Positions 889 through 59,694 of a DNA stretch of 64,000 nt are shown in pieces (position 1 is the first letter of the stretch; each line of letters opens with the position of its first letter). The DNA comes from an uncultured Candidatus Saccharibacteria bacterium (GTDB lineage: Bacteria > Patescibacteriota > Minisyncoccia > Portnoybacterales > UBA2143), in contig CAYPQZ010000008.1 of the NCBI GenBank assembly GCA_964413015.1, forward strand, positions 111,626-175,625, given 5' to 3'. The notes under the pieces were generated by a model. That model was not told the origin of the DNA and searched no databases. It saw only the letters and a program-made list of their open reading frames with translations. The position numbers and the translations under genes were made by a program.

Positions 889-961
889 CGGGGCGACAGG
901 ATTTGAACCTGCGATCTTCGGACCCCCAGCCCGACGCCTTAAGCCGCTAGGCCACGCCCCG
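889..961 (-). tRNA. tRNA-Pro (GGG)
   Basis: Cloverleaf read on the minus strand. Acceptor CGGGGCG/CGCCCCG, anticodon loop CU-GGG-GG, T-loop GGTTCAAATCC. Confidence 0.85.
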
Positions 962-1040
962 TAGAAGAATTTCAAAAGATTTTTCGGAGAAAAATCAAAT
1001 GCGGAGCCATTTGAAATTTCTCTACGGGGCACGCCCCGTA

Positions 1041-3262: not shown

Positions 3263-3364
3263 CATAATATTTATCCAAGAGCGAAGCGATTGGTAAATAA
3301 ATACTATATCCGTCTCAGGTGAACGCTGAATTTATTGGCAAAATCAAGATTTTGAATAAATTCG

Positions 3365-3438
3365 CGGGCCCATAGCGCAGTTGGTTAGCGCGTCTGTATG
3401 GCATACAGGAGGTCGAGGGTTCGAATCCCTCTGGGTCC
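3365..3438 (+). tRNA. tRNA-Ala (GGC)
   Basis: Acceptor GGGCCCA with G3:U70, anticodon loop AU-GGC-AU, T-loop GGTTCGAATCC. Confidence 0.8.
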
Positions 3439-3569
3439 ACATAATATTTATCCAAAATTTATTTTGGTTATAGATATTATGCCCGCCTCAAGAGGGCTGG
3501 AAGTAGATCTTGCCCGCCTCAGGCGAACGCTGAATTTATTAGCAAAATTAAAATTTTGAATAATTTTGC

Positions 3570-3644
3570 GCCGAGGTAGCTCAGGGGTAGAGCATTCGAC
3601 TGAAAATCGAAGTGTCGGCGGTTCGATTCCGCCCCTCGGCACCA
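3570..3644 (+). tRNA. tRNA-Phe (GAA)
   Basis: Acceptor GCCGAGG/CCTCGGC, anticodon loop CU-GAA-AA, encoded CCA. Confidence 0.85.
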
Positions 3645-3647
3645 AAA

Positions 3648-3719
3648 GCGGGAGTAGCTTAGTGGTAGAGCGTCTCGTTGCCAACGAGAAGATCGCGGGT
3701 TCGAACCCCGTCTCCCGCT
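3648..3719 (+). tRNA. tRNA-Gly (GCC)
   Basis: Acceptor GCGGGAG/CTCCCGC, anticodon loop UU-GCC-AA, T-loop GGTTCGAACCC. Confidence 0.85.
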
Positions 3720-3792
3720 CAAATTGTTATAAGTTAAATAGTCAGAAAACGGCTTATCCAAGCCATTTTTTAGTAAAAAAAGAGTAAAAATA

Positions 3793-3822
3793 CTTGACAA
3801 ATATGTCAAGCTATGATAGTAT
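3793..3822 (+). promoter_or_regulatory. sigma70-like promoter with overlapping palindrome
   Basis: TTGACA (3794-3799), 17 bp, TAGTAT (3817-3822). CTTGACAAATATGTCAAG is a perfect inverted repeat across the -35 (possible operator). Confidence 0.5.
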
Positions 3823-3917
3823 ATAGGGAATCCCTGAAAGGGGATTTTTAATTTGTTTGTTTTCTTGCCTTTGAATAGATAATTTTTTATCTGTTCAAAG
3901 AAGGAGCAAACAGGTTT

Positions 3918-4400
3918 ATGTATACTATCAGCAGCAAGTTTTCCGTTTCACTAGTCTTAGTTAGCTTATTTTCTAACATTGTTTTCCCTAAATATGGATT
4001 AACTGATAGCGATTTAGAAGAAATTGATTTAATGTCGGAAGATTCTTTGGCCACTGTCCAAGGACAGGCCTTGATTCAACCGGGTTTTCCGTATGTTCCT
4101 GAAGTGGTTGCCCAAAATTGGGTAACGATTACCGCTTATTCCAGTACGCCTGACCAGACCGACTCAACCCCTTTTATTACCGCTTCCGGGAAAACCGTTT
4201 GTGACGGAATCGTCGCTTGTAACTTTTTAAGCTTCGGGACCAAGGTTCGTTTCCCTGAATTGTACGGAGATAAAATTTTCGTGGTTGAAGACCGAATGGC
4301 TCTTCATAACAGTCATAAAATAGATATCTGGTTTTCGACTCGCTGGGAAGCAAAACAATTTGGAGTCAAGATAACTAAGGTTGAAGTATTAGGAACATAA
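3918..4400 (+). CDS. 3D-domain (MltA/YuiC-like) cell-wall binding/lytic protein
   Basis: Signal peptide and conserved D...D...D-containing 3D-domain-like core (ITAYSS...CDGIVAC...DRMALHNSHKIDIWF). Confidence 0.6.
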   Translation: MYTISSKFSVSLVLVSLFSNIVFPKYGLTDSDLEEIDLMSEDSLATVQGQALIQPGFPYVPEVVAQNWVTITAYSSTPDQTDSTPFITASGKTVCDGIVACNFLSFGTKVRFPELYGDKIFVVEDRMALHNSHKIDIWFSTRWEAKQFGVKITKVEVLGT

Positions 4401-4430
4401 AAACCCCCGATTTGAATCGGGGGTTTTTAT
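4401..4430 (+). terminator. intrinsic terminator
   Basis: AAACCCCCGATTTGAATCGGGGGTTTTT hairpin plus T-run. Confidence 0.75.
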
Positions 4431-4544
4431 GTTGGCGCACTGTATCAAAGATAGCTCAAACGCACATAAAAATTCGTAAAACAAAACATATAAAAAAAAT
4501 TGAGCCCCGAGTGGTTTTGCCACAAGGGGCTCAGTTAACAGCGG

Positions 4545-5051
4545 TCATCGCCTTAGCTCGCTACTCACTATGCGCTTGTACGCGAAGTAGGGTATGAGCT
4601 TGAAAATAAGTTCTCGTTTGTTCCATTGCTTGCGAGATCGAACTCGCTCCTGCTTGGAATCGGAGCAAAACCAGGAATCTTCCGGGTATTGCTCGATTTC
4701 CTCGCAAACGCGAACTTCAATTCTCGCTCCGACTTCGCGTACGGCCTGTTGGACATCACGAAGAGCGCGCCAAAGATGCGGCTTGGCAGCTACGACCCAC
4801 AACTCGGTGATTCTGTGACGCTTCGCCCACTGGACGGCTTCTCGGGCAATGCGCAGAGTTGACGGCGGGTTGCCCGGCTTTTCCTCAATATACTCCACTT
4901 GGATCCTCGGCTTGACCCGAATGTCAAGCTGGGTATACACCAGAGCATCGAGCTCACACGCCTTCTCCGAAGCGATTTCGGCGATACGCTGGTTGGACCG
5001 GATTGTCTCCGGTACTCCGAAAGCGAATGCAACAATACCTGTAGTTTTCAA
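4545..5051 (-). CDS. hypothetical protein, compositionally atypical (GC-rich); weak resemblance to DUF218/YdcF-like fold
   Basis: 168 aa, TTG start with AGGAGGT SD. Local GC is clearly above the roughly 35% background. VVAAKPHLWRAL resembles the DUF218 'LVTSxxHMxRA' motif (weak). Confidence 0.35.
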   Translation of the reverse strand: MKTTGIVAFAFGVPETIRSNQRIAEIASEKACELDALVYTQLDIRVKPRIQVEYIEEKPGNPPSTLRIAREAVQWAKRHRITELWVVAAKPHLWRALRDVQQAVREVGARIEVRVCEEIEQYPEDSWFCSDSKQERVRSRKQWNKRELIFKLIPYFAYKRIVSSELRR

Positions 5052-5257
5052 TTTTTACCTCCTGTATATAAAGTTGGAAAAGTACCGATTTTTGACTATC
5101 TAAAGTATAGCATATTTTTACCTTGTTGTAAAGGGTAACAAAAAATCAGCATTTCTGCTGTTCCTTAAACTTTTTGGTCGCCGAGTCCCGCACTAAAACA
5201 AGTTCAGTACGAGGCAAACTCCGCGAGGCGACCTCCAAATCGTTGACTTTTTCTCGG

Positions 5258-5343
5258 TGGTGCCGCGGGTGGGACTCGAACCCACATGGATAAAATCCAC
5301 ACGATTTTAAGTCGTGCGCGTAAACCAATTCCGCCACCGCGGC
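5258..5343 (-). tRNA. tRNA-Leu (TAA)
   Basis: Acceptor GCCGCGG, anticodon loop CU-TAA-AA, long variable arm, CCA encoded. Confidence 0.85.
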
Positions 5344-5350
5344 ATTCAAG

Positions 5351-5421
5351 AGGCCACGACCGGAGTCGAACCGGTTTAGACGGTTTTGCAGACCGTTGCC
5401 TTACCGTTTGGCTACGTGGCC
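5351..5421 (-). tRNA. tRNA-Cys (GCA)
   Basis: Acceptor GGCCACG/CGTGGCC, anticodon loop CU-GCA-AA, T-loop GGTTCGACTCC. Confidence 0.85.
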
Positions 5422-5453
5422 TTGTTCTGATTTTAACATTTTTTTGACAGAAT

Positions 5454-5789
5454 TCAATGTTTTTTAATTTGTCCTAAAATTTCTTCGATTCTTTGAGCTT
5501 TGATTTCTGTTTGGTCAATCTCAAATTGAATTTTAGGGACTATTTTCAAATATAATTTTTTATTCAGCTCCTGTTGAAGATGATAAATTTTTTTATGGAT
5601 TATTTCCAAAGCCAATTCTCCTTTGTCATTGGGAATAACGTTGATTTTAACCTTAGCATGAGACAAATCGGCCGAGGTCTCAACCTGATTAACAGTTACT
5701 AAAATATCTTCAAATCTAATTTCCCGTAGGATTAATTTGCTGATTTCCTGCCTAAGAAGCTCATTGATTCTTTCAATGCGTTGAGACAT
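5454..5789 (-). CDS. rbfA: ribosome-binding factor A
   Basis: 111 aa, RbfA-like KH fold sequence, directly downstream of infB as in the infB-rbfA operon. Confidence 0.8.
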   Translation of the reverse strand: MSQRIERINELLRQEISKLILREIRFEDILVTVNQVETSADLSHAKVKINVIPNDKGELALEIIHKKIYHLQQELNKKLYLKIVPKIQFEIDQTEIKAQRIEEILGQIKKH

Positions 5790-5791
5790 TA

Positions 5792-7330
5792 CTATATCTC
5801 CCTTTTTTCTCTTTTTTCTTCGTAAATTTCCAGCACATCACCCTTTTCAATCTTTTCGATGCCTTTAAATAAAATACCGCATTCTTGACCCTTGTTAACT
5901 TCTTCAATTTCCTTTTTATCCCTTTGAAGCTGAACTAACTTACCCTGCCCTATTTTTTTATCTGCCCCGCCTGCATCGCCTGGCGAAGCACTGCGGGTAG
6001 GCCGAATAATATCAATTAAGGTTCCTTGCTTAATTTGTCCTTTAATTACTTTCCCGCCTACAATTTGCCTGTCCTTTTCAGTTCGGAACAAAGCCATAAC
6101 CTTAAGCTGCCCGAGGATGTTTTTTGAAATTTCCGGCGTCAGTAATTTAGAAAGCAACTCTCTGACTCCTTGGATAAGTTCATAAATTATATCAAAAAGC
6201 AGCATTTTTACTTTTTTATGCTGGGCTAATTGACGGATAGTTAAACTGGCTTTTACGCGAAAGCCAATTATTTTTGCCTTGGAAGATTCAGCCAGTTTGA
6301 TATCTGATTCGTTAATGTCTCCGACTTCAGCTTTCAAAATCCTTAAAATGACTTCGTCCACAGGAATGCTTTTAAGCGAAGCTCTAATTGCTTCCAAGGA
6401 ACCTCGGACGTCGGATTTGAGGATAATATTAAGAATTTTTTTATCCGGTTCAAAAACGAAAACTTCTTTTTCTTCTTTTCTCTTAGCGGCTTTCCGCTCG
6501 GCTTTAACTCGGGCTAATTCCAAGCTTTCAAAAGTGTAGAATTTTTCTCCTACTTGAGGAACCTGATTAAAGCCGGTAACGATAGCCGGAGTTGAAGCAA
6601 GGGCCTTTTCAATCGGAGAAAACCGGAAATCTTCCATAGTTTTGATTTTTCCAATAGCCGAACCGGTGCCAATAATATCCTGATTGCTTAAAATTCCTTG
6701 CTTTACCAAAAGAGTTGCCGTGGCGCCTCTTTTGTTATTCTGGTGAGACTCAATAACCAACCCTGAAGCTGGCTGGGATAAATCGCCTTTCAATTCTTCC
6801 ATTTCGGCTACCAGAAGGATTATCTCTAAAAGCTCGTCAATCCCTTGCTTAGTTTTGGCCGATACGTTAATTGAAGGAATCTGGCCTCCCAATGATTCCA
6901 CGCTGAGATTGTTTTTAGACAATTCTTCTTTGACCCGTTCCGGCTGGGCTTCTTTCTTATCAATCTTATTTAAAGCGACAATTGCCGGCAAGCCGCTTTT
7001 TTTAATATGTTCAATAGCTTCTTTGGTTTGCGGTTTGACTCCTTCTTCGGCGGCCACTACCAGAACGGCGATATCGGCCACTTTGGCTCCCCGCGAACGC
7101 ATAGCCGAAAAGGCTTCATGCCCGGGAGTGTCAATGAAGGTGATTTTTTTGCCCTGATGTTCTACCTGATAGGCGCCGATATGTTGGGTAATCCCGCCTG
7201 ATTCCCGGGCGGTAATTTTCAAATCTTTAATCGCTTCCAGAATTGAAGACTTGCCGTGGTCGACGTGGCCTAAAATAACCACCACCGGTGGTCGTACCTG
7301 AATATTCTTTTGTTCCTTCTCTTCTGTCAT
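5792..7330 (-). CDS. infB: translation initiation factor IF-2 (short form)
   Basis: GHVDHGKSS, DTPGHEAF, NKIDK G-domain motifs. 512 aa without the N-terminal extension. Confidence 0.9.
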   Translation of the reverse strand: MTEEKEQKNIQVRPPVVVILGHVDHGKSSILEAIKDLKITARESGGITQHIGAYQVEHQGKKITFIDTPGHEAFSAMRSRGAKVADIAVLVVAAEEGVKPQTKEAIEHIKKSGLPAIVALNKIDKKEAQPERVKEELSKNNLSVESLGGQIPSINVSAKTKQGIDELLEIILLVAEMEELKGDLSQPASGLVIESHQNNKRGATATLLVKQGILSNQDIIGTGSAIGKIKTMEDFRFSPIEKALASTPAIVTGFNQVPQVGEKFYTFESLELARVKAERKAAKRKEEKEVFVFEPDKKILNIILKSDVRGSLEAIRASLKSIPVDEVILRILKAEVGDINESDIKLAESSKAKIIGFRVKASLTIRQLAQHKKVKMLLFDIIYELIQGVRELLSKLLTPEISKNILGQLKVMALFRTEKDRQIVGGKVIKGQIKQGTLIDIIRPTRSASPGDAGGADKKIGQGKLVQLQRDKKEIEEVNKGQECGILFKGIEKIEKGDVLEIYEEKREKREI

Positions 7331-8080: not shown

Positions 8081-8323
8081 TTATAATTCTAACTTCTTTT
8101 TTAATTGTCTTCTACCTTGAGATTTTTTATAAAAATTTTCTGTTTTTTGAGCTAATGTTTTTGTCTGGTATGCTTCGTAATAAATTAAATCCCATGGCCT
8201 GAAATTTCTTGTAGATTTTACTTTTCCGAAATTGTGTTCTTTAAGTCTTTTTTCTAGATTACTGGTGCTTCCTCTATACAATTTATTATTTTTTTGGTTT
8301 TTTAGAAGATAAAAATAATACAT
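8081..8323 (-). CDS. GIY-YIG nuclease family protein (YhbQ-like, stand-alone)
   Basis: 80 aa; YYFYLLKNQKNNKLYRGSTSNLEKRLKEH matches the GIY-YIG core (Y..Y....YxG...L..R...H). Ends 2 bp before the tRNA-Ser 5' end. Confidence 0.7.
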   Translation of the reverse strand: MYYFYLLKNQKNNKLYRGSTSNLEKRLKEHNFGKVKSTRNFRPWDLIYYEAYQTKTLAQKTENFYKKSQGRRQLKKKLEL

Positions 8324-8399: not shown

Positions 8400-8435
8400 C
8401 GAGACCGTCCCTTTCGTCCGCTCAGGCACCTCTCC
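8400..8435 (-). pseudogene. duplicated 5' half (nt 1-35) of tRNA-Ser(CGA)
   Basis: 36/36 identity with 8043-8078 (CGAGACCGTCCCTTTCGTCCGCTCAGGCACCTCTCC). The copy stops inside the anticodon. Two hairpins (8324-8396) follow it. Confidence 0.8.
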
Positions 8436-10121: not shown

Positions 10122-10204
10122 TGCCCAGGGCGGGACTCGAACCCGCACGTCCCGAAAGACATAGCTCCTCAAGCTACCGCGTATGCCAATTCCGCCACCT
10201 GGGC
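10122..10204 (-). tRNA. tRNA-Leu (GAG)
   Basis: Acceptor GCCCAGG/CCTGGGC, anticodon loop UU-GAG-GA, long variable arm. Confidence 0.8.
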
Positions 10205-10214
10205 TTTATTCCCT

Positions 10215-10589
10215 TTATTGCTTTTTAGTTTCAGTTTTTTGTTTAGGGGTGATTTCCTTAAGTCGAGCCTGTTTGGCTGATTTGTCTCGGATATAATAAA
10301 GTTTGGCTCGGCGGACTTTGTATTTTTTTACTACTTCTATATTTTCAATAAAAGGCGCGTGGATAGGGAAAATTCTTTCCACTCCGACTCCGGAAGCGAC
10401 TCTCCGAACAGTAATAGTCGCGTTAATTCCTTTGCCGTGTTTGCGAGCAATAACCAATCCTTCAAAGGATTGGATTCTTTGTTTGTCTTTTTCCTTTATC
10501 TTCTGATGAACCTTAACAACATAACCCGGCCTGATTTCAGGCAGGTCCTTTTTTAATTGTTTCTTATTAAATGAATCAAGTTTGTTCAT
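10215..10589 (-). CDS. rplS: 50S ribosomal protein L19
   Basis: 124 aa; the FEGLVIARKHGKGINATITVRR region is typical of L19. Confidence 0.85.
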   Translation of the reverse strand: MNKLDSFNKKQLKKDLPEIRPGYVVKVHQKIKEKDKQRIQSFEGLVIARKHGKGINATITVRRVASGVGVERIFPIHAPFIENIEVVKKYKVRRAKLYYIRDKSAKQARLKEITPKQKTETKKQ

Positions 10590-13557: not shown

Positions 13558-14268
13558 ATGCTAGAATTAACCGATGAAAATTTTGAAGAAGCCATAAAAA
13601 AAGCGGACAAGCCGCTTTTAGTCGACTTTTGGGCTACCTGGTGCAGCCCTTGCCTGATTCTTTCACCGATTCTGGAGAAAATAGCCCAGGATTACAAATC
13701 AAAAATAGAAATAGCGAAAGTTAATGTTGATTCCGCCCCGACGGTCTCGCAGAAATTTGAAATACAGAATATCCCAACTGTGATTCTTTTTAACCAAACC
13801 GAACCGGTTGACGGTTTTGTCGGTGTCCGGCCGGAATCGCTGATTAAGGAATGGCTGGATAAAATTTTAGAAACGGTCGGTCAAGAGCAAGAACTAAAAA
13901 ACGGTGTGGAAACAGAGGAAAACAAAGAAGGAAGAAAGGAGGATCAGGTAAAATCCAAAAAGATGGAATCAAAAAAGGGAAAAAGCGAACCACAAGAAGA
14001 CGACGAGAGAAAAATCAGTCGGACAATCAAGTGGTATGAGGAATACGCTCAAAAGAATGGTTTAAAGCTGAATTCGGATGAGGAAATGGTCCGCGGCTTA
14101 ATTAAGGGGCTTTTAAAAAATGAAGACAAGCACGGAGCAAGATATTGCCCTTGCCGGAGAATTGCCGGAGACATTGAGGAAGACCGGCCCAAAATTTGTC
14201 CCTGTCAATGGCATCGGGAAGAAATTAAAAAAGATGGCCGCTGTTTTTGCGGACTTTTTGTAAAATGA
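13558..14268 (+). CDS. thioredoxin fused to a ferredoxin:thioredoxin-reductase catalytic-subunit-like domain
   Basis: N-terminal WCSPC thioredoxin, Lys/Glu-rich linker, C-terminal CPCRR...CPCQWHRE...GRCFCGLF (FTR beta CPC/CHC signature). Confidence 0.65.
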   Translation: MLELTDENFEEAIKKADKPLLVDFWATWCSPCLILSPILEKIAQDYKSKIEIAKVNVDSAPTVSQKFEIQNIPTVILFNQTEPVDGFVGVRPESLIKEWLDKILETVGQEQELKNGVETEENKEGRKEDQVKSKKMESKKGKSEPQEDDERKISRTIKWYEEYAQKNGLKLNSDEEMVRGLIKGLLKNEDKHGARYCPCRRIAGDIEEDRPKICPCQWHREEIKKDGRCFCGLFVK

Positions 14269-14774
14269 ATTTAATTTTTTCTTTTATCGTATCTTTAGTT
14301 TTTTATCTAGCATTGACTTTTGGCTCGGGGAGTATCTTATATTGGAGCAGAGAAGAGATTGTCTTAGGGGTCATTTTATCTGCTTTAACCGGAATAATAG
14401 CCCAGCGAATTTTTAAACCGCTCAAAATCGGGATAAGCCCGAAACTGTTAAATCCTTTAAGGTGGGTTTTATTTTTAGTATATCTGTTCGTCCCTTTCTT
14501 AATTAGCGTTGTCAAAGCCAATTTAGAAGTTGCTTACCGGATTATCACCAATCGAATAAAACCGGGCATTGTTAAAATATCGCCTGACCTGAAGACTGAT
14601 TTAGGTTTAACTTTGCTGGCTAATTCCATCACTCTGACGCCCGGGACATTGTCGGTCGATTTAGACCAAGAGAAAAATCTTTACGTTCATTGCCTCTGGG
14701 TTAAAGATAAAAAGCCCGGCGCCAAGCCATTGGCTTTTAAAGCCGCCAAGTGGATTAAAATAATCACTGAATAG
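14265..14774 (+). CDS. Mrp/Mnh antiporter subunit E-like (MbhA-like)
   Basis: ANSITLTPGTLSVD...LYVHCL MnhE signature. ATGA start/stop overlap with the upstream gene. Confidence 0.65.
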   Translation: MNLIFSFIVSLVFYLALTFGSGSILYWSREEIVLGVILSALTGIIAQRIFKPLKIGISPKLLNPLRWVLFLVYLFVPFLISVVKANLEVAYRIITNRIKPGIVKISPDLKTDLGLTLLANSITLTPGTLSVDLDQEKNLYVHCLWVKDKKPGAKPLAFKAAKWIKIITE

Positions 14775-14779
14775 TTTCA

Positions 14780-15019
14780 ATGTGGCAAATAATCGCTTTA
14801 ATCATTTCTGTTTTTATTATTATCGTCTTGATGAGAATTTCCCTAGTCAGGACGATTTTTGACAAATTGGTTATTCTAGACGTGGCTAACACTTTAGTTA
14901 TCACTTTACTGATAACGTTGGCAATTGCCTGGCAAGAGTTTTTTTTAATTGACGTGGCCATTGTTTACGCTTTTCTTTCTTTTGTAGGCTTAATCTATTT
15001 TGTTAAATACGTCCGATAA
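14780..15019 (+). CDS. Mrp subunit F-like small membrane protein
   Basis: 79 aa, 3 TM helices, follows the mrpE-like gene. Confidence 0.5.
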   Translation: MWQIIALIISVFIIIVLMRISLVRTIFDKLVILDVANTLVITLLITLAIAWQEFFLIDVAIVYAFLSFVGLIYFVKYVR

Positions 15020-15027
15020 AAACGCCT

Positions 15028-15354
15028 ATGTTTTTATTTTATTTCTTTATTGCCGTCAGTTTGATTTTTTTCGCCTTAAGTATTTTAGGCCTGTTCCGGC
15101 TACCCGATGTTTATACCAGATTGCATTGTTCCAGCTTGGCACTGACTTTTGGTTTTGTTTTTTTTGTTCTGTCTGTGGTGACTTATTTTTCAGCTGCGGT
15201 CGAAAGCAACTTTTCAGCGATTGTCCGCGTTTTTTTAGTCGCTTTAATTGTTCTGTTAGTCGGTCCGGTTTTATCGCACGCCATCGCCAAGGCCTCATAC
15301 GAAAGCGGAGCCAAGCCGCAAAAAGCGGAGAAAGGCAAATTTAACCAATTTTAA
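15028..15354 (+). CDS. Mrp subunit G-like
   Basis: RLPDVYTRLHCSS motif typical of MnhG. Confidence 0.6.
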   Translation: MFLFYFFIAVSLIFFALSILGLFRLPDVYTRLHCSSLALTFGFVFFVLSVVTYFSAAVESNFSAIVRVFLVALIVLLVGPVLSHAIAKASYESGAKPQKAEKGKFNQF

Positions 15355-15358
15355 TCAA

Positions 15359-15613
15359 ATGGTTTTCCCCTGGGAACAAATTATTCAGTTTTTAATTTTA
15401 AGCGCTATGGTTTTGTCGGCCTTTTTAGCGCTGAAAAGCAGAAATCTGTTCGCTTCAATCGCTTATTTGGCGGCGATGAGCTTAATGCTGGCCGCGGAAT
15501 TTTATTTACTGCGGGCGCCGGATGTGGCTATGGCCGAAGCGGCCGTAGGAGCGGGTTTGTCTTCGGCTATCTATCTGGCGGCTGTTTACCGCCTTAAACA
15601 GCTTAAAAAATAA
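15359..15613 (+). CDS. DUF4040/MbhD-like membrane subunit
   Basis: 84 aa hydrophobic; position and size as for MbhD. Confidence 0.4.
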   Translation: MVFPWEQIIQFLILSAMVLSAFLALKSRNLFASIAYLAAMSLMLAAEFYLLRAPDVAMAEAAVGAGLSSAIYLAAVYRLKQLKK

Positions 15614-15617
15614 TCTT

Positions 15618-15920
15618 ATGTTTGAGAAAAGCAGAAAATATAATTTTCAGAAAACCAAAATAACTGCTTTGGTGATTTTATTTATTTTTCTGCTCTTCAT
15701 TTTGTGGTCTCTTCATCCTTGCGGGCAGCCAAAAGCAACCAAGATGGATGACTATTTTCTCCGAAATGCTCAAGAGCAGACTGGCAGCAACAATGTTGTT
15801 ACCAGTATCATTTTTGATTATCGTGGACTAGATACTTTAGGCGAAGCGACTGTTTTATTCGCGGCTGCTATGGGAGTATTTTTTGTTTTTAATCCTAAGA
15901 AAAAATTGCCGTTAGATTGA
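15618..15920 (+). CDS. MnhB-related N-terminal domain protein (MbhE-like)
   Basis: VVTSIIFDYRGLDTLGE signature. Confidence 0.55.
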   Translation: MFEKSRKYNFQKTKITALVILFIFLLFILWSLHPCGQPKATKMDDYFLRNAQEQTGSNNVVTSIIFDYRGLDTLGEATVLFAAAMGVFFVFNPKKKLPLD

Positions 15921-15923
15921 ACT

Positions 15924-16364
15924 ATGACTAGAATAGTTAAAACAACCAGTTTAATAATTTTTGCTCCGATAGTTTTATTCGGCTTATATATTATTTCCCA
16001 TGGCCATTTGACTCCCGGTGGCGGATTCCAAGGAGGAGCGGTGGCGGCTTCAGCCATTGCGCTGGTCTGGGCGGTTTTTAGAAGCGAAACCAAATTCTCC
16101 GCCGGATTATTCTCGTTCTTGGAATCTTTAGGGTTGTTTCTCTTTATCTTGCTGGCTTTCGGCGGTCTGGCTAGGCAAACGTTTTTATCCAATTTTTTAG
16201 CCAATACGCCGGGCTTTTTCGGACAGACAATTAATTTCGGAGTTAATCCCGGCTTTTTAGCTAGTGGCGGAGTTATCCCTTTAATGAATCTGGCCATTGG
16301 CCTGGAGGTCTTTGCGGCCTTGTCGCTGGTGATTATATTAATAGCCGGGCAAAAACATGATTAG
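15924..16364 (+). CDS. MnhB-domain membrane subunit (MbhF-like)
   Basis: HGHLTPGGGFQGG signature. Confidence 0.6.
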   Translation: MTRIVKTTSLIIFAPIVLFGLYIISHGHLTPGGGFQGGAVAASAIALVWAVFRSETKFSAGLFSFLESLGLFLFILLAFGGLARQTFLSNFLANTPGFFGQTINFGVNPGFLASGGVIPLMNLAIGLEVFAALSLVIILIAGQKHD

Positions 16365-16665
16365 CTTTGTTTATCTATTCGCTTTCTTGCTCCTGGCGAT
16401 TGGAATTTCAGGAGCAGTTTTCAAGAAAAACCTGATTAAAGTGGCGATGTCCATTAATATTATTAGTAACGGAGTGAATTTATTTTTAATCAGTTTGGGG
16501 TATCGGACAGGAGGAGTGGCTCCAATTTTCACCAATGCGGTCGGTGTAGATATGGTCTTGCCGACTTCTCAAGCTTTGGTTCTAACTAGTATTGTCATTA
16601 ACCTGGCAGTAACCGCTTTTCTGGTTTCTTTGGCCGCTTTGCTTAGTCAGAAAAAGCATTCTTAA
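16357..16665 (+). CDS. MnhC/NuoK-like subunit
   Basis: 102 aa, 3 TM, NuoK-like. Confidence 0.6.
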   Translation: MISFVYLFAFLLLAIGISGAVFKKNLIKVAMSINIISNGVNLFLISLGYRTGGVAPIFTNAVGVDMVLPTSQALVLTSIVINLAVTAFLVSLAALLSQKKHS

Positions 16666-16668
16666 CTT

Positions 16669-18198
16669 ATGTCTCAAACCATCATTTTAACCATTGCTGT
16701 TTTCCTGTTGGGCGCTTTCCTTCTGCCAATTGCCGGCAAATTAGGCAGGAAAACTAAAGGGGGCTGGCTCGGCTTAATTTTAATTGCGGCTAATATTTTT
16801 GCTTTTTTCTTGTATTATGAGGTTTTAACAAAGGGGCCGATGGCTTACCGCGTGGGCGCCGAACTGCCTTTTTCGCCTTCTTCGTCGGGATTCCCTTTCA
16901 GGATTGTTTTAACCGGCGATGCTTTATCAGGTTTGTTGGCTTTTGTTTTTGTTTTAATATCTTCCTTGGCTTTGCTGTTTTCTTGGAAAAATTCAGAATT
17001 TCGGCCTAAGAGCCAAGAACATCAATATTCCTCTTCAACCGGTTTTTACGTCTGGGGGTTGTTGCTTGTCGCGGGCGCGCTTGGTTTTTTATTGGCCGGA
17101 GATTTTTTCACCTTATTTGTTTTTTATGAAATAAATTCTATCGCGGCAGCCGGCTTGATTTCCTTTTTTGGAAGGAGAAAAAATCTGAAATCAGCTTTTC
17201 ATTATTTGGCAGTTTTCTCCGTCGGTTCCTTATTTTTGCTTTTCGGAATTGGCCTTCTTTACAGCCAGTATGGTTTCTTGAATATGGCCGCGGTGGCCAA
17301 AAATCTTAATTTTTCCTTTTTGGACCAGATCGCTTTGGCTTTAATCATGGCCGCTTTGGCTTTAAAGGCAGGTTTTTTCCCCTTCTATTTTTGGAGACCC
17401 GGAACCTATCAATCTTCTCCTGCGCCGGCTCTGGTCTTGTTCATTGTTTCTTCGGCTTCAGCTGTTTACGCTCTCTTTAGAATTATTTTCAACGTTTTCG
17501 GTCCGAGTTTTAACCTGAGTTGGGTTTTAATCTTGTTTTCGGTTCTGTCAATTTTCGTCGGCGCTTTTCTGGCCTTGAAAGAAAACAATCTTAAAAGAGC
17601 CCTGGCTTATTTGGCTGTTTCAGAAGTGGGTTACATTTTTTTAGGAGTTTCTTCGGGATTGTCCAAGCCGGAAGCGGAATTCAGCCGTCAGGCGATTGAA
17701 GGAGGTCTATTCCATCTGGTCAACGACGTTTTAGATATGAGTTTGTTGTTTTTGCTGACCGGTCTTATTATTTATCTTGGTCGGAAAGAAAACGCTTTTG
17801 AGATACGCGGATTGGCTCGTCATCATCCCTGGCTGGCCGGAATTTTCCTTCTTGGCGTTCTGGCTGTGTCCGGTTTGCCGCCGTTAAATGGTTTCGCATC
17901 CAAGATGATGATTTATGAGTCAGTTTTTAAACTGAATCCCGCCTTGTCGGTTTTGGGTATTTTGGGCAGTATTCTGATTTTGGCGGTTTTGGTCAAAATC
18001 TTCGCTTCTGTCTTTCTTGGCTTTTCGCTAAATGCTTACCGAAAGACGCCTAAAACAGCCGCGGCGGTTATTCTGATTTTGGCGGTTAGCATGGTTTTAA
18101 TCGGGCTTTTCCCGAAAAAATTTATCGCTTCCTTTATTAACCCGGCCGCCGAATCCCTGATTTTGCCGTCGGTTTACGTAGGTAAAGTTATCAATTAA
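16669..18198 (+). CDS. MnhD/NuoN/NuoM-family antiporter-like subunit
   Basis: 509 aa, about 14 TM helices, proton-pumping-subunit family features. Confidence 0.7.
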   Translation: MSQTIILTIAVFLLGAFLLPIAGKLGRKTKGGWLGLILIAANIFAFFLYYEVLTKGPMAYRVGAELPFSPSSSGFPFRIVLTGDALSGLLAFVFVLISSLALLFSWKNSEFRPKSQEHQYSSSTGFYVWGLLLVAGALGFLLAGDFFTLFVFYEINSIAAAGLISFFGRRKNLKSAFHYLAVFSVGSLFLLFGIGLLYSQYGFLNMAAVAKNLNFSFLDQIALALIMAALALKAGFFPFYFWRPGTYQSSPAPALVLFIVSSASAVYALFRIIFNVFGPSFNLSWVLILFSVLSIFVGAFLALKENNLKRALAYLAVSEVGYIFLGVSSGLSKPEAEFSRQAIEGGLFHLVNDVLDMSLLFLLTGLIIYLGRKENAFEIRGLARHHPWLAGIFLLGVLAVSGLPPLNGFASKMMIYESVFKLNPALSVLGILGSILILAVLVKIFASVFLGFSLNAYRKTPKTAAAVILILAVSMVLIGLFPKKFIASFINPAAESLILPSVYVGKVIN

Positions 18199-40850: not shown

Positions 40851-41915
40851 TTAAGCAATTAGTTTTAAGTTAGCATCGGCCTGGATTTTACGCCAGTTTT
40901 TTTTAGAAGCTGGCCTTTTTTTATGCCAGGCGGCCGCGGCAATCATAGCGGCATTGTCGGTACATAAATTTTTTGGCGGGACCAAAAAAATTAGCTTACT
41001 GTCTATAGCAGACAGCTTACTGCCGAATTGTTTGCGGAGTTCTTGGTTAGCGGCTACTCCGCCGGCCAGCATAACTGTTTTGACTTGATATTTTATAATC
41101 GCTTGAATGGTTTTGCTAACTAAAACGTCAATTACCGCTTGTTGGAATGAAGCCGACATATCAGAGATAAGAACAGTCCCCAAATCTTTTGGGGACTGTT
41201 CTTTATGTTTCCGGACTTCGTAAAGCACCGCTGTTTTCAGGCCGGAAAAAGAAAAATCAAAATCATTTGTTTTGAGCATTGGCCGGGGCAGTTCAAAAAA
41301 TTGAGGATTGCCCTTTCGGGCTTTTTGAGAAACAATGGGCCCGCCTGGATAGCCAAGATTTAACAGTTTGGCTACCTTATCAAAGGCCTCGCCAGCCGCA
41401 TCATCCCGAGTCTCTCCCAATAATTGATATTTCTCATGGCCTTTCATTAAAATTAACTGGGTATGTCCGCCTGAGACCACTAAACAGAGAATAGGAAATT
41501 TTGGTTTAGAAATTAGAAATTGGAAATTAGAAATTTCGCTAATTGGCTTTAGCCAATTAGCGTATATATGTCCTTCAATGTGGTTGATTCCAATAATCGG
41601 TTTTTGCCATTTATAAGCCAGGGCTTTGGCGAAATTAACCCCGACTAAAAGCGAAGGTATCAAACCGGGCCCAACGGTTACGGCAATTAAATCAATCTTA
41701 CGGCAGTGAGATTTTTCGAGCGCTTCTTTTAAAACCGGCTGAATATTTTTCAAATGTTCCCGGGCCGCTAAGTTAGGGACTATCCCGCCATAAGGAGCAT
41801 GCATTTTTATTTGCGAAGAAACTATGTTCGACAAAATCCAACAGCCTTTCCGGTTGCCTTCTATTAAAGCAATCCCTGTATCATCGCAAGATGTTTCAAT
41901 TCCCAGAATAATCAT
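40851..41915 (-). CDS. tsaD: tRNA N6-adenosine threonylcarbamoyltransferase
   Basis: ILGIETSCDDTGIALI N-terminus, Kae1/TsaD family. Confidence 0.85.
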   Translation of the reverse strand: MIILGIETSCDDTGIALIEGNRKGCWILSNIVSSQIKMHAPYGGIVPNLAAREHLKNIQPVLKEALEKSHCRKIDLIAVTVGPGLIPSLLVGVNFAKALAYKWQKPIIGINHIEGHIYANWLKPISEISNFQFLISKPKFPILCLVVSGGHTQLILMKGHEKYQLLGETRDDAAGEAFDKVAKLLNLGYPGGPIVSQKARKGNPQFFELPRPMLKTNDFDFSFSGLKTAVLYEVRKHKEQSPKDLGTVLISDMSASFQQAVIDVLVSKTIQAIIKYQVKTVMLAGGVAANQELRKQFGSKLSAIDSKLIFLVPPKNLCTDNAAMIAAAAWHKKRPASKKNWRKIQADANLKLIA

Positions 41916-43894: not shown

Positions 43895-44626
43895 ATGGAT
43901 GATAAAAAAACAAATAAAAGAATAAATTATAAGGCCTGGTTGGTTATTCTAACCGTTACGGCCTTGGCTTTTACCAATGCCTTAATTTCAGTTCGCCATT
44001 GGGAGCTAAATCAAGAAGTTAACTTGCTTTCCAGCAGCATCAGCAGTATTGTCGCTTATCATGGAGAGAAAGCTGTTCAAGGGGAAGAAGACGACTCAAC
44101 CGATAAAGACGACGGAGAACAAAAAAATAATCAACCGGAAGAAGCGCCTAAGACTGTTTTAGAAATTAAATCAGGCGGATATTATTACAGTTCGCAGGGA
44201 GACCAGTTGGGAATTGGCCCTTTGCCTCCTGAAGTTGATATTCAGACAAACTACTGGGTTTTCTGGGAAATAGATTCAGCTGAAGGAGTTAGAGATATTG
44301 AGATAACCGGCGAGTTGCCGGATAAAGTTGTTTGGACAAACAAAAAAACCGTTACTGCTGGAAGTTTGCATTTTGGAGAAGTTGGCCGTCGGGTGGTCTG
44401 GTTAAATAACGAGATTGACTTAAAGAGTCCTTGTAAAGTTGGTTTTGAGATAGGCCTGATTCCTAGAGGAAACGATATTGGCAAGACTATGGATTTGCTG
44501 ACAGATATTGAATATCAGGCAATAAGTAGATATACTGGAGAAAAAATTAGCGGGAGCCTAGATAAAATTACTACCAATTTGAAATTTGATGATTTGGCTT
44601 CAGGCAAAGGTGAAGTTGTCCAGTAA
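43895..44626 (+). CDS. hypothetical membrane-anchored protein
   Basis: One N-terminal TM, no recognisable domain. Confidence 0.4.
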   Translation: MDDKKTNKRINYKAWLVILTVTALAFTNALISVRHWELNQEVNLLSSSISSIVAYHGEKAVQGEEDDSTDKDDGEQKNNQPEEAPKTVLEIKSGGYYYSSQGDQLGIGPLPPEVDIQTNYWVFWEIDSAEGVRDIEITGELPDKVVWTNKKTVTAGSLHFGEVGRRVVWLNNEIDLKSPCKVGFEIGLIPRGNDIGKTMDLLTDIEYQAISRYTGEKISGSLDKITTNLKFDDLASGKGEVVQ

Positions 44627-44767
44627 TTTTTTTATGCCCCGTAGAGAAACTTTGACCCATTCGCCAAGGGCGAATAATAATCATGCGGGGATATATAATT
44701 GTAGAATAAACTAAGAATATTAAGAACTTTGATTTTTTAAATTAATGTCAAAGTTCTTCTACGGGGC

Positions 44768-46354
44768 ATGCTTCCAAAAGATAAATATTATTTAAAAGTA
44801 AGTAAGGCGGATGATTTGAAAAGCCCGAGAGAGAAATATCTCTACCGGGCTTTTGAAATCCTACCGGGCTTTTTAGCTTGGTTGACTCTTTTGAGCGTTA
44901 TTTTCCTATCCTGGCTTCAGCCAATTTGGGTAGCTTTTTTTATTATTGCTTTTGACGTTTATTGGCTGCTTAAGACAATTTATCTTTCTTTGCATTTAAG
45001 ATTCAGTTATAACCGGATGAAAAAACAAGTTCAGGACGACTGGCTGAGTAAGCTGAAATCCCTTAAACATAAAGATTGGCGTAAGATTTACCATCTAGTT
45101 ATTCTTCCTTTTTACAAAGAGGACATTGAATCAATCAGGACAACCTTTCAGGCAATAGTTAATTCTGATTATCCTAAAGACAGGGTCATGATTGTTTTAG
45201 CTGCCGAGGAACGGGCCGGCCAACTGGCTAAAAAACTCTCCCAAAAAATTAAAAAGGAATTCAGCGATAAGTTCTACAAGTTTGTTGTCACGGTTCATCC
45301 TAAAGACATTGTCGGCGAATTAGCCGGCAAAGGGGCTAATTCTACCTGGGCGGCCAGACGGTTCAAAAAACAGGTTATTGATCCTTTAAAAATTCCTTAT
45401 CAGAATATTGTTGTTTCCTGCTTTGATATTGATACCCAGATTTTCCCGAAATATTTTTCCTGCCTAACTTATTATTATTTAACAACCGATAATCCGACTA
45501 GAACCAGTTATCAGCCGGTTCCGGTTTACAACAACAATATTTGGCAGACGCCGTGCATCTCTCGGGTAGTGGGCACTTCCGGAACTTTCTGGCAGATGAT
45601 TCAACAGCAAAGGCCGGAACGCCTTTCCACTTTTTCCTCCCAAGCGCTTAGCTTTAAAACCTTGGTTAGAGTAGATTTCTGGCCGGTAAATATGGTTTCT
45701 GAAGATTCGCGGATATTCTGGCAAAATCTGCTTTTTTACCAGGGAGATTATAAGGCAGTCCCTTTATATTATCCGGTTTCTATGGATGCCAACCTGGCAC
45801 CTAATTTTATGAAGACAGCTATTAATGTTTACAAACAGCAAAGACGCTGGGGTTGGGGAGCTGAGAATATCCCCTTTTTACTTTTTGGGTTTTACAAAGA
45901 TAAAAAAATATCTTGGAGAAAAAAATTTCACTGGACATGGGTTCAGCTGGAAGGTTTTTGGTCATGGGCAACTAACGCTTTGCTGATTTTTCTTCTGGGC
46001 TGGCTGCCTTTATTTTTAGGCGGCCAGAAATTCAACGTTACCCTTTTGTCATATAACCTGCCTCGAATAACTAGAATTTTGATGACTTTGGCAATGGTCG
46101 GCTTGGTCGGTTCAGCTATTTACAGCACTCTACTTTTACCCAAGCACCCTAAAAAATATTCTTTGATTAAAAAGGCTTCAAAATATCTGGGCATGGTTAT
46201 CCAGTGGATTCTAGTGCCTTTTACAATTCTTGCCTTCGGAGCCCTCCCCGGTCTGGAAGCCCAAACCCGTCTGATGCTGGGCAAATATATGGGGTTTTGG
46301 GTTACTCCGAAGAAAGGTGAGTTTTCTACGGGGCGGATCACGAAGAAGAAATGA
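44768..46354 (+). CDS. processive family-2 glycosyltransferase (cellulose/hyaluronan-synthase-like) with C-terminal TM domain
   Basis: D, DxD (FDID) and QRRW (KQQRRWGWGAEN) motifs; multiple TM helices. Confidence 0.65.
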   Translation: MLPKDKYYLKVSKADDLKSPREKYLYRAFEILPGFLAWLTLLSVIFLSWLQPIWVAFFIIAFDVYWLLKTIYLSLHLRFSYNRMKKQVQDDWLSKLKSLKHKDWRKIYHLVILPFYKEDIESIRTTFQAIVNSDYPKDRVMIVLAAEERAGQLAKKLSQKIKKEFSDKFYKFVVTVHPKDIVGELAGKGANSTWAARRFKKQVIDPLKIPYQNIVVSCFDIDTQIFPKYFSCLTYYYLTTDNPTRTSYQPVPVYNNNIWQTPCISRVVGTSGTFWQMIQQQRPERLSTFSSQALSFKTLVRVDFWPVNMVSEDSRIFWQNLLFYQGDYKAVPLYYPVSMDANLAPNFMKTAINVYKQQRRWGWGAENIPFLLFGFYKDKKISWRKKFHWTWVQLEGFWSWATNALLIFLLGWLPLFLGGQKFNVTLLSYNLPRITRILMTLAMVGLVGSAIYSTLLLPKHPKKYSLIKKASKYLGMVIQWILVPFTILAFGALPGLEAQTRLMLGKYMGFWVTPKKGEFSTGRITKKK

Positions 46355-46833: not shown

Positions 46834-46942
46834 TTGTCCCCCCTATTTAAATGTTAAATACCTGCCTTTTGTTGTTATTTTAATTAGAGGATTGTATTTT
46901 GTCAAGTAAACTTGCTCCAATGCATAAAGGACTGTCCTTTAA

Positions 46943-50456: not shown

Positions 50457-51119
50457 TTATCTCCTGGCAATGACTAATCCCCAGATTTCTTTGGGCTTGA
50501 GGGGTTTTAGGACTCGAGCGCATTCTCCCAAGGTGGCTCCGGTGGTGGCAATGTCGTCAATAAGAATAGCCGTAAAAGGACGTAATTTTAAGGACTGTCC
50601 TTTATTTAACATAAAGGCGTTTTTGATATTCTGCTTTCTTTGCCGAGCATTTTGGATTTGAGCCTGCGGCAAATTATATTTTTTCCGGACAATCAAGTTA
50701 TTAACAATTGGAATATTTAATTGCCGGCTAATTTCAAGAGCCAACAATTCTGATTGATTAAAGCCCCGCCAACGCAATCGTTTTTTGTGCAAGGGAACCG
50801 GAATTAGAATAGAATTCCTTTGAATAATGAAATCAGAAAGGACATTTATCCTTTGGACTAGGAGACATCCTAGCGGTTCAGCTAAATCTTTAATAAAGTC
50901 ATACTTGTAATTATGAATAGCTTTTTTAATCAGCGGATGAGCGTAATAGCTGGCCGCAACTAGACCGGTTAAGCCGCTTCCGGAGTTTAATTTTAAAGGC
51001 GGTTTTTTACTTAACGGGATTTGGCTAAAGCAAGTCGGGCAAATAAACTCTCGGTGAGTTTCTTTGCCGCAGCCAAGGCAGTAGACAGGGAAAAGTAAAT
51101 TGATTAAGAGATTTATCAT
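50457..51119 (-). CDS. comF: ComF-family protein (zinc finger + phosphoribosyltransferase domain)
   Basis: N-terminal CLGCG...CPTC, C-terminal ILIDDIATTGATL PRTase motif. Confidence 0.75.
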   Translation of the reverse strand: MINLLINLLFPVYCLGCGKETHREFICPTCFSQIPLSKKPPLKLNSGSGLTGLVAASYYAHPLIKKAIHNYKYDFIKDLAEPLGCLLVQRINVLSDFIIQRNSILIPVPLHKKRLRWRGFNQSELLALEISRQLNIPIVNNLIVRKKYNLPQAQIQNARQRKQNIKNAFMLNKGQSLKLRPFTAILIDDIATTGATLGECARVLKPLKPKEIWGLVIARR

Positions 51120-59610: not shown

Positions 59611-59694
59611 GACAAGCTTCCATGATAAGAACAGTCTTTAAAATGACGCCCTTGTGCTCAAGGGACATCATTTTAAGGACTGTCCTTTAATGAC

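Follow-up and report, generated by a model that had tools for sequence, protein, structure and literature searches.

What is the inverted repeat that lies at the 5′ end of the tRNA-Pro(GGG) gene of an uncultured Candidatus Saccharibacteria bacterium, and how did it come to be there? The repeat belongs to a contiguous stretch of 64,000 nucleotides (contig CAYPQZ010000008.1, positions 111,626 to 175,625; hereafter the window), in which it occupies positions 956–1030 and forms, on the minus strand, a 75-bp hairpin between rpmB and the tRNA gene. Our analysis indicates that it is probably a non-autonomous copy of a palindromic mobile family specific to Patescibacteria, the ~300–350 bp members of which carry a GIY-YIG nuclease. 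Genome comparison shows the insertion itself, a 2-bp target duplication, membership in a family shared with nuclease-bearing elements, and a bias in the choice of target. [quoted passage not shown]

Read on the minus strand, the element has the form 5′-GCCCCGUAGAGAAAUUUCAAA...UUUGAAAUUCUUCUACGGGGC-3′. Its arms, GCCCCGTAGAAGAATTTCAAA (956–976) and TTTGAAATTTCTCTACGGGGC (1010–1030), are each 21 nt long, are complementary at 19 of 21 positions with the two exceptions in the centre, and enclose a spacer of 33 nt. The predicted fold has a closing stem of 21 bp (z = −5.4 versus shuffles), and the motif GCCCCGTAGARAAAYTTY is matched five times in the window with at most two mismatches, against 0.07 matches expected; none of 100 shuffles reached five. 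The element shares its termini with a whole family, of which it belongs to the short class described below, and it is missing from the orthologous site in the relatives L011 and L231. The tRNA-Pro(GGG) gene (887–961; ARAGORN, Rfam tRNA 61.4 bits) is encoded on the minus strand, and the element therefore lies upstream of it and immediately downstream of rpmB, the gene for ribosomal protein L28 (1041–1232, minus strand; identified from its open reading frame (ORF), L28 homologs and Pfam PF00830). All three are co-oriented, rpmB being the upstream gene. The order on the minus strand is rpmB (1232 to 1041) with its UAA stop, UA CGGGGC GU, the 75-nt hairpin (1030 to 956), and then GU GGCC..., which continues as the tRNA, the first six nucleotides of which (CGGGGC, 961 to 956) are also the last six of the element.

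The sequence reveals a 2-bp target duplication on the minus strand, with its upstream copy at 1031–1032 (GT on the minus, AC on the plus strand) and its downstream copy at 954–955, where it constitutes G7-U8 of the tRNA. Positions 1033–1040, directly after the rpmB stop, hold the displaced ancestral start of tRNA-Pro on the minus strand (UA plus CGGGGC), in a position that matches relatives L011 and L002. A longer direct repeat of 11 nt, CACGCCCCGTA, is found at 953–963 and 1030–1040 with a period of 77 nt when measured with a sequence ruler, and eight of its nucleotides are the element’s own terminus, TACGGGGC. This repeat had been placed at 954–964 and 1026–1036 with a period of 72 bp and taken as an 11-bp target duplication around a 61-bp segment. 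The duplication is in fact 2 bp long (GT here, AT at a second copy in the window), the other 8–9 nt reflecting the identity of the element’s 3′ terminus TACGGGGC with the ancestral tRNA 5′ end. The inserted unit is accordingly the 75 bp from 956 to 1030 with 2-bp flanks; the 61-bp delimitation went astray because the 11-nt repeat overlaps the element’s own termini.

To compare this locus with its relatives, we fetched syntenic rpmB loci by way of L28 homologs, which are labelled Parcubacteria, Paceibacteria or Portnoybacteria, and examined five lineages. The hairpin is absent from the rpmB junction in all five. In L011 (L28 85% identical to that of the window), a single nucleotide separates the rpmB stop from tRNA-Pro(GGG) at 5474–5550 (TAA-A-CGGGGTGTAGC), and in L231 (85%) the tRNA gene (609–685) follows rpmB after 13 nt. 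The tRNA has been lost from the other three lineages, of which L002 (L28 90% identical) retains the remnant TAATACGGGATGTGG (10193–10215), L007 (87%) the remnant TAATACGGGAATTAC (10193–10210), and L232 (84%; 590–650) none. Thus, tRNA-Pro(GGG) after rpmB has been deleted in three related lineages, with a 5′ remnant of 7–13 nt in two of them, and kept in two others, where the ancestral layout places it 1–13 nt after the rpmB stop. Because tRNA-Pro follows rpmB directly in these relatives, the upstream CGGGGCGU of the window can be recognized as the ancestral tRNA start. The earlier note had asked whether relatives lack the leader segment; L011 and L231 do, rpmB and tRNA-Pro being adjacent and hairpin-free in both. 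A hairpin kept at the same orthologous position in all relatives, which would have spoken against a mobile element, is not what these empty sites reveal. The comparison shows that the 75-bp element inserted into the GT (G7-U8) of tRNA-Pro(GGG) with a 2-bp duplication.

Counting the duplicated GU, the element sits between tRNA positions 8 and 9. Its last eight nucleotides (TACGGGGC) equal the eight that precede the insertion point, and an intact tRNA 5′ end was therefore recreated downstream; the old 5′ end persists upstream as one half of the 11-nt “direct repeat”. The precursor is predicted to fold best (−67.5 kcal/mol) with the old upstream CGGGGCG paired to the tRNA 3′ strand and the hairpin inserted into the tRNA body, whereas the canonical cloverleaf with the regenerated 5′ end reaches −62.0 kcal/mol and is 5.5 kcal/mol less stable. 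RNase P would have two acceptor-stem registers to choose between. As prediction favours the register with the old upstream copy, this tRNA may be impaired by the insertion. The loss of tRNA-Pro(GGG) from three related lineages marks it as dispensable, and the gene in the window, the 77-nt insertion-derived leader of which competes for the acceptor stem, may be on its way to the same loss.

A second, medium-class element of 132 bp occupies 44636–44767 on the plus strand (fold z = −5.0), between the stop of an ORF at 43895–44626 and the start codon of a gene for a GT2-family glycosyltransferase (44768–46354, plus strand; identified from its ORF and orthologs). Its arms at 44636–44656 and 44747–44767 enclose 90 nt and end in the same termini as those of the 75-bp element; the earlier note had seen this pair as belonging with the first, which holds, with arms at 44638–44660 and 44745–44766 and an enclosed 85 bp, which does not. 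The flanks are AT at 44634–44635 and AT at 44768–44769, the latter being the first two bases of the ATG. Among GT2 orthologs, for which 80 loci were fetched, about 20 that were inspected begin with MLP.DKYYLK at this ATG and have no element. A closely related pair consists of L135, which is empty (...CAATAACTCC ATG CTT CCA), and L136, which is filled: the same CAATAACTCC is followed by AT, the element (GCCCGTAGAG...CTACGGGGT) and ATG CTT CCA. The identity between these two is 91% within GT2 and 95% over the 200 nt that precede the insertion site, and the gain or loss must therefore have been recent. The hairpin-free sites in L011 and L231 for tRNA-Pro and in L135 for GT2 bear out the earlier proposal of a short inverted-repeat element inserted with a target duplication. 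Comparison with orthologs shows that the 132-bp copy split the GT2 ATG in the same manner as the 75-bp copy split tRNA-Pro, here with duplication of AT.

The two window copies are oriented alike with respect to transcription (5′-GCCCCGUAGAGAAA...UUCUUCUACGGGGC-3′), and their distal stems differ by compensatory changes (AAAUUUCAAA with UUUGAAAUU versus AAACUUUGAC with GUCAAAGUU). Over their whole length, the medium-class copies of the window, L136, L064 and L035 are 81–85% identical. That the window and L136 share the GT2 start codon as insertion site hints at recurrent insertion at the same ATG. Within the 132-bp element (44652–44681), TTGACC, which is part of the 5′ arm, is followed after 18 nt by AATAAT, a 10/12 match to a sigma-70-like promoter facing GT2, and several related copies retain TTGAC(N)...AATAAT.

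At the other end of GT2, the plus-strand sequence TTTTCTACGGGGC (46321–46334) in the C-terminal tail matches the element’s 3′ terminus. The earlier note had located a single motif copy inside the 3′ end of the gene at 46315–46334; what lies there is only a match, at 46321–46334, to 13 of 14 nt of the 3′ terminus. The tail itself (46313–46354, GEFSTGRITKKK) is missing from the orthologs, which end in ...TPKKK, and it reads FSTG, resembling the NSSTG tails made where nuclease ORFs read into the 3′ arm. The match is possibly a relic or excision footprint of an element. Two other candidates were set aside: an inverted repeat at 44813–44860, which contains a weak motif match (44837–44850, two mismatches), encodes DLKSPREKYLYRAFEIL, conserved in all orthologs, and a solo CTACGGGGC at 61015 has an ORF-like context and no arm-like flank and was treated as a chance match.

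To define the family, we scanned genome contigs, one genome per species, with the single-arm pattern GCCCCGTAGARRAAYTTY. The scan returned at least 112 loci, and the copy numbers derived from it are lower bounds. Paired copies number at least ~50 (56 in the tally of flanks) and, among the matches listed, all come from metagenome-assembled genomes (MAGs) labelled as Patescibacteria, including Nealsonbacteria, Doudnabacteria, Magasanikiibacteriota, Paceibacteria, many “Saccharibacteria” and others; the listed matches outside Patescibacteria are single arms, as chance expects. The MAGs JAHJUH01 and JAUWYA01 hold at least 9–12 copies each, compared with two in the 64 kb of the window. A scan of viral contigs yielded 10 single-arm matches and no paired element; there is no sign of a phage origin. 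Three size classes share the same 21-nt termini: 62–98 bp (like the tRNA-Pro copy), 125–171 bp (like the GT2 copy) and 298–353 bp. These termini read (G/A)CCCCGTAG...CTACGGGG(Y), where CCCCGTAG and CTACGGGG are nearly invariant and GTAG is invariant.

The closing stem is conserved as a structure. Across 41 distinct arm pairs it comprises 22 pairs, is 89.6% paired, and has seven pairs with compensatory changes, giving a covariation score that none of 500 shuffles reached. Its defect is conserved as well, positions 11/12 always forming G-U plus an A x C mismatch, and the most frequent closing pair is G-U. Elements nested one inside another were found at L071, L132, L049 and L081. The window copies share several properties with MITEs, being short and non-coding apart from a short upstream ORF (uORF), bounded by terminal inverted repeats and a 2-bp duplication, multicopy, and matched by empty sites. 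Rfam searches (the whole window at the gathering threshold, both copies at E ≤ 1) returned only tRNAs and far-sub-threshold miRNA-like hairpins. No group I ribozyme core was detected in these scans, and a 75-nt element is too short for one. Counts of wobble pairs (sense 69, antisense 58) allow no call on strand or on RNA versus DNA. A test for in-frame insertion, as known for the RPEs of Rickettsia, gave periods modulo 3 of 9/12/18 and thus no frame preference; in 33 of 39 cases the uORF ends before the host ATG. One copy, L089 6758–6843, has a period of 87 nt and no in-frame stop, and would add a 29-aa N-terminal extension (MPRREISKNPYRVIIRISEKFLIRNSSTG) to its host protein.

Every copy of 298–353 bp contains a single ORF of 86–99 aa that encodes a single-domain GIY-YIG protein (Pfam PF01541, E = 1e-15, residues 2–71). 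The earlier note had looked to an insertion sequence (IS)-type transposase as the partner acting in trans; the ORF-bearing copies with these termini encode only this nuclease, and none of the copies found with these termini encodes a DDE or HUH transposase. Where a MAG is rich in short copies, an ORF-bearing one is present too (L131, L024). The nuclease has more than 1300 homologs, and the best 120 listed are 71–100% identical to it. Few of these 120 have named sources, which are several Patescibacteria lineages, and many homologs lie on very short contigs, as expected for repeats. Four further loci with nuclease ORFs, from other lineages (Buchananbacteria and others), possess co-varying termini, for example ACCCCGTAGTAGAATTTCCAA with TTGGAAATTTCACTACGGGGT and CCCTGTAGTGAAAATTCAAA with TTTGAATTTCTACTACAGGG, and are placed in the order ATG, element, ATG before host genes such as rplW. 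The invariant residues are Y3, Y5, Y16, G18, R26, H30 and E62, of which Y5, Y16, R26, H30 and E62 are of catalytic type. An AlphaFold model of the nuclease (pLDDT 96) has as its nearest solved folds UPF0213 BH0048, the structure-selective nuclease Slx1 and the catalytic domain of I-TevI. In ORF-bearing copies, the upstream ATG opens a short uORF, the end of which is separated by 2 nt from the nuclease AUG (UGAUUAUG), and the nuclease stop lies 0–37 nt ahead of the host AUG, with UAAUG in L037. This arrangement suggests a chain of translational coupling from the uORF through the nuclease to the host gene.

Remarkable, too, is where the family inserts. A 2-nt direct repeat (AT, GT, TT, AA or CA) flanks 46 of the 56 paired copies, with AT on the 5′ side in 40. 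In 39 of the 56 (~70%), an ATG follows within 0–5 nt of the element, and in 37 of these cases the ATG begins an ORF of 50 codons or more. The Pfam models of L9, EF-P, CTP synthase, a MurA-like protein, NrdD, HolB, PilM and PilB begin at residues 1–23 of the host ORFs, and the element-abutting ATGs of these eight genes are therefore the true starts. On a crude gene map, 39 of 40 placements are at start codons, compared with ~30% under a model of random ATG hits followed by intragenic purging (P = 1e-19). Reconstructed empty sites have T at −1 in 30 of 39 cases (P = 4e-5) and CC at +4/+5 after the ATG in 12 of 39, against a background of 2% (P = 2e-11). In its preference for T-ATG-CC, the element thus selects targets that look like its own left junction, T/AT/GCCCC (slashes delimit the 2-bp repeat or mark an element end). 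In full, the left junction is T-AT/GCCCCGTAGAG... and the right junction ...CTACGGGGT/ATG. In the same way, the tRNA-Pro target TACGGGGC/GT/G resembles the right junction CTACGGGGY/AT/G, and the nested copy in L071 adjoins TGCGGG. The tRNA 5′ end was regenerated because the element chose a site resembling its own end.

A duplication of 4 nt (TATG) was rejected, given that the base before the ATG is C in both L135 and L136 and the element ends in T. Some upstream flanks retain AGGAG 7–10 nt before the old ATG. In 8 of 40 copies, a TAnnWT hexamer precedes the upstream ATG by 6 nt, a placement that suggests leaderless promoters. Two elements of different size classes from two different MAGs, L104 (1310–1446, minus strand) and L112 (957–1028, minus strand), sit at the start codon of a gene encoding MPTIQQLVKR in the former and MPTIHQLIKK in the latter. 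A Pfam scan of the first 30 residues of these host proteins returned no family; by appearance the gene resembles that of ribosomal protein S12. Like the GT2 start codon shared by the window and L136, this site hints at recurrent insertion at one ATG.

How could such an element move? The GIY-YIG nuclease may recognize the junctions between element and flank, whether in double-stranded DNA or where an extruded hairpin has its foot. It would cut them with a 2-nt stagger, in the manner of duplex-cutting GIY-YIG enzymes, or at the foot of the hairpin or cruciform in a manner like that of Slx1 or of the Ssn nucleases discussed below. GIY-YIG homing endonucleases make cuts staggered by 2 nt, and a duplication of 2 bp would agree with such cuts. 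Host ligation or repair would then join the ends, leading to precise excision and to the 2-bp duplication. Re-insertion would occur at sites cut to the same overhang, which would explain an inherited AT duplication. Junction look-alikes in the genome, namely T-ATG-CC at gene starts and TACGGGGC-GT-G in tRNA-Pro, would become targets, and short copies would be moved in trans. Taken to its full extent, this scheme would describe a new class of bacterial DNA transposon, comprising the smallest autonomous elements known (~0.3 kb, two 21-nt ends and a GIY-YIG protein of ~90 aa) and their MITE-like derivatives. These would home into start codons and look-alikes such as the tRNA-Pro 5′ end and be moved by cuts at the hairpin foot and host ligation, the nuclease and host gene being kept expressed by translational coupling or an element-borne promoter. 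We put this wider proposal forward tentatively, as a possibility that is less likely than not.

Several observations weigh against a nuclease-driven mobile family, or at least against its simplest form. The evidence for movement comes from genome comparison, and the joining step is hypothetical because strand transfer is beyond a hydrolytic GIY-YIG nuclease acting on its own. The only characterized single-domain relatives, the Ssn nucleases, cut only single-stranded DNA and have been interpreted as domesticated rather than mobile (PMC11893778). No ORF-bearing copy of the hairpin lies within the 64-kb window, and the one GIY-YIG gene found there (8081–8323) encodes a protein just 50% identical to the element nuclease and is without the termini of the hairpin family. 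The duplication is not of uniform length, four “A-type” copies being compatible with 3 nt. The T-ATG-CC bias accounts for only part of the start-codon specificity, as 27 of 39 sites have no CC. The copies at GT2 in the window and in L136 could reflect constraint and not recurrent insertion. Finally, genes such as those for L9, EF-P or L23 would have to be translated from an AUG at the base of a 21-bp stem, a puzzle that leaves room for a role at the RNA level.

Such a role would be primary if the hairpin were an RNA element that serves as a leader or in processing, or that is cut out of transcripts as an intervening sequence, for example by RNase III or another endonuclease. Its removal would make the AUG accessible or 5′-terminal again, or would yield a normal pre-tRNA, and DNA mobility would be secondary. 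The co-orientation of the copies with the downstream gene, the coincidence of the stem foot with the AUG, the prevalence of G-U as closing pair, and the tolerance of essential genes to insertion are all compatible with this explanation. So are the TAnnWT peak 6 nt before the upstream ATG (8/40), which suggests transcripts beginning at the element, and the best pre-tRNA fold, which puts the hairpin as an insert within the tRNA body. However, no Rfam family scores above noise, the wobble counts (69 versus 58) do not favour the sense strand, and the alignment has no conserved structure outside the closing stem, which is the only part predicted. Presence and absence between genomes that are 91–95% identical, nesting, and sites in terminator loops and beside tRNAs are features of DNA, and no bacterial splicing machinery is known for such junctions. 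We therefore consider an RNA element unlikely. A purely host-encoded structure, meaning a vertically inherited terminator, attenuator or operator hairpin with the surrounding repeat derived from local duplication, would agree with the intergenic position between co-transcribed genes, and the junction TACGGGGCACGCCCCGTA followed by a T-run does score as terminator-like on the plus strand. We give it almost no credence, since none of the five related rpmB lineages that we examined has the hairpin, the same termini recur in different Patescibacteria classes at dozens of loci unrelated to one another, and the transcribed strand has no U-tract after the hairpin.

The copies could also be moved by an enzyme of a more familiar type. 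A conventional MITE, derived by deletion from an IS with a DDE transposase (of the IS630 or IS30 type, which make duplications of 2–3 bp) and moved in trans by a transposase encoded elsewhere in the genome, would likewise have terminal inverted repeats (here 21 nt), a 2-bp duplication, a small size and multiple copies, and the GIY-YIG gene would then be a passenger. IS30-type elements target sequences resembling their own ends, a habit that would match the resemblance between target and terminus here. Yet none of the ~55 copies in ~0.8 Mb of fetched Patescibacteria DNA is longer than 353 bp, those with coding capacity hold a GIY-YIG ORF only, the termini co-vary with the nuclease subfamily, and the duplicated bases differ from the TA that IS630 typically produces. 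This origin appears very unlikely to us.

By its published description, the closest known system is that of the Ssn nucleases with their hairpin repeats. Ssn proteins, such as SsnA of Neisseria meningitidis, are single-domain GIY-YIG enzymes (family cd10448) that are specific for single-stranded DNA and for a site, and their genes are flanked by multicopy hairpin repeats termed NTS/SRM (PMC11893778). Chenal et al. (2025) note the IS-like layout NTS-ssnA-NTS and an analogy to REP/RAYT; their paper makes no mention of Patescibacteria, start codons or target duplications (PMC11893778). The Patescibacteria family shares with Ssn a single-domain GIY-YIG protein of ~90 aa and a gene bracketed by inverted-repeat DNA that is multicopy in the genome. 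However, each Ssn repeat is a self-contained hairpin of 20–50 nt, whereas the two 21-nt ends of the Patescibacteria element pair across the whole element, and Ssn repeats have not been reported to be mobile, to duplicate their target or to lie in start codons.

Other palindromic elements resemble the family in part. Correia/NEMIS of Neisseria, RPE of Rickettsia, ERIC and RUP are non-coding elements of ~70–150 bp with terminal inverted repeats, a 2-bp duplication and long hairpins. They are co-transcribed with their neighbours, sometimes contribute promoters and, in the case of the RPEs, insert into genes without destroying them. The short Patescibacteria copies are MITEs in form, like Correia or RPE. 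To our knowledge, the mobilizers of Correia, RPE, ERIC and RUP are presumed to be of the DDE type or are unknown, none has an autonomous form with only a GIY-YIG protein, and start-codon targeting has been reported for none of them. The Patescibacteria family differs from Correia and RPE in having an autonomous form with GIY-YIG only, a hairpin that spans the whole element, and a placement at start codons; bacterial MITEs and palindromic elements have been reviewed (PMC10969869, PMC3184786). REP/REPIN-RAYT systems also consist of hairpin repeat doublets dispersed by one small repeat-flanked enzyme, with a GTAG by the palindrome and an imperfect stem that gives polarity. However, the RAYT is TnpA-REP, an HUH (Y1) tyrosine transposase and not a GIY-YIG hydrolase, and REPs are extragenic and without target duplication; no HUH (Y1) transposase gene flanked by the repeats was found here, the only associated ORF being GIY-YIG. 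The GIY-YIG homing endonucleases, free-standing or intron-borne (I-TevI, T4 Seg), share the catalytic domain and selfish insertion that spares host gene function. Unlike the element nuclease, they possess a further domain for binding DNA, recognize a single long cognate site, and spread by recombination from allele to allele only, whereas the Patescibacteria elements occupy dozens of unrelated loci and have terminal inverted repeats and non-coding derivatives. IS200/IS605 and PATE are similarly minimal, with hairpins bearing conserved imperfections and a target related to the element end, but they have subterminal hairpins, no terminal inverted repeats, no duplication and an HUH transposase.

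Our search of the literature found no description of mobility, of start-codon targeting or of such a family in Patescibacteria, and a single brief reference to GIY-YIG genes acquired by horizontal transfer. The genomes of Patescibacteria are tiny and streamlined, and they are generally considered to contain little mobile DNA. Hairpin elements in the start codons of core genes (L9, EF-P, L23, CTP synthase, NrdD) across many lineages would change this picture. Empty and filled sites, duplications and nesting provide direct genomic evidence that a hairpin-flanked single-domain GIY-YIG nuclease can behave as a mobile element, a behaviour that had so far been only hypothesized, for the Ssn/NTS system. 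A preference for start codons is rare among insertion targets and makes the link between the element and translation initiation testable. Gene calling would have to mask or model the family, since every copy introduces a spurious ATG upstream together with a short ORF.

The GIY-YIG gene of the window belongs to a different insertion. It encodes 80 aa (8081–8323, minus strand; tblastn E = 6e-21, 50% identical to the element nuclease) within a 321-nt insert (8399 to 8079) that lies between a duplicated 5′ half of tRNA-Ser(CGA) and the intact gene. The duplicated half (8400–8435, minus strand) is 36 nt long, ends after anticodon base 35 and is identical to 8078 to 8043 of the intact tRNA; two GC-rich hairpins precede the GIY-YIG gene. 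Because the 5′ part of the target is duplicated, the tRNA-Ser gene survives. Relatives L002 and L007 do not have the insert, and their tRNA-Val and tRNA-Ser are 4–5 nt apart. In one strain the 357-nt unit occurs twice in tandem (L224 1089–1802), and homologs of the window protein (65–73% identical) are encoded just 5′ of tRNA-Ser(TGA) in other genomes (L226 and L230 among the loci). By sequence, this insert is a second, distinct GIY-YIG insertion type, and it resembles a homing cassette.

Further features were noted in the window and its relatives. The window, which derives from a member of the Patescibacteria (CPR), holds 18 tRNA genes in 64 kb. The start of rpmB looks leaderless, with TATAAA (1238–1243), 5 nt and ATG (1230–1232) on the minus strand and no Shine-Dalgarno sequence; similar TAnAAT-6 nt-ATG layouts precede many element-bearing genes of other MAGs. 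In L007, IF-2 and ribonucleotide reductase (3315–6434 and 13881–17204) contain inteins with LAGLIDADG domains, which are absent from the same genes in L002. A 13-nt palindrome, AAGGACWGTCCTT, has 14 matches in the window with at most two mismatches, against 1.4 expected, at 1330–1342, 46927–46939, 50590–50602, 59675–59687 and 10 weaker sites. Several of its copies form larger inverted repeats (1276–1348, 59627–59687 and 41169–41203), and it may be an operator or terminator motif.

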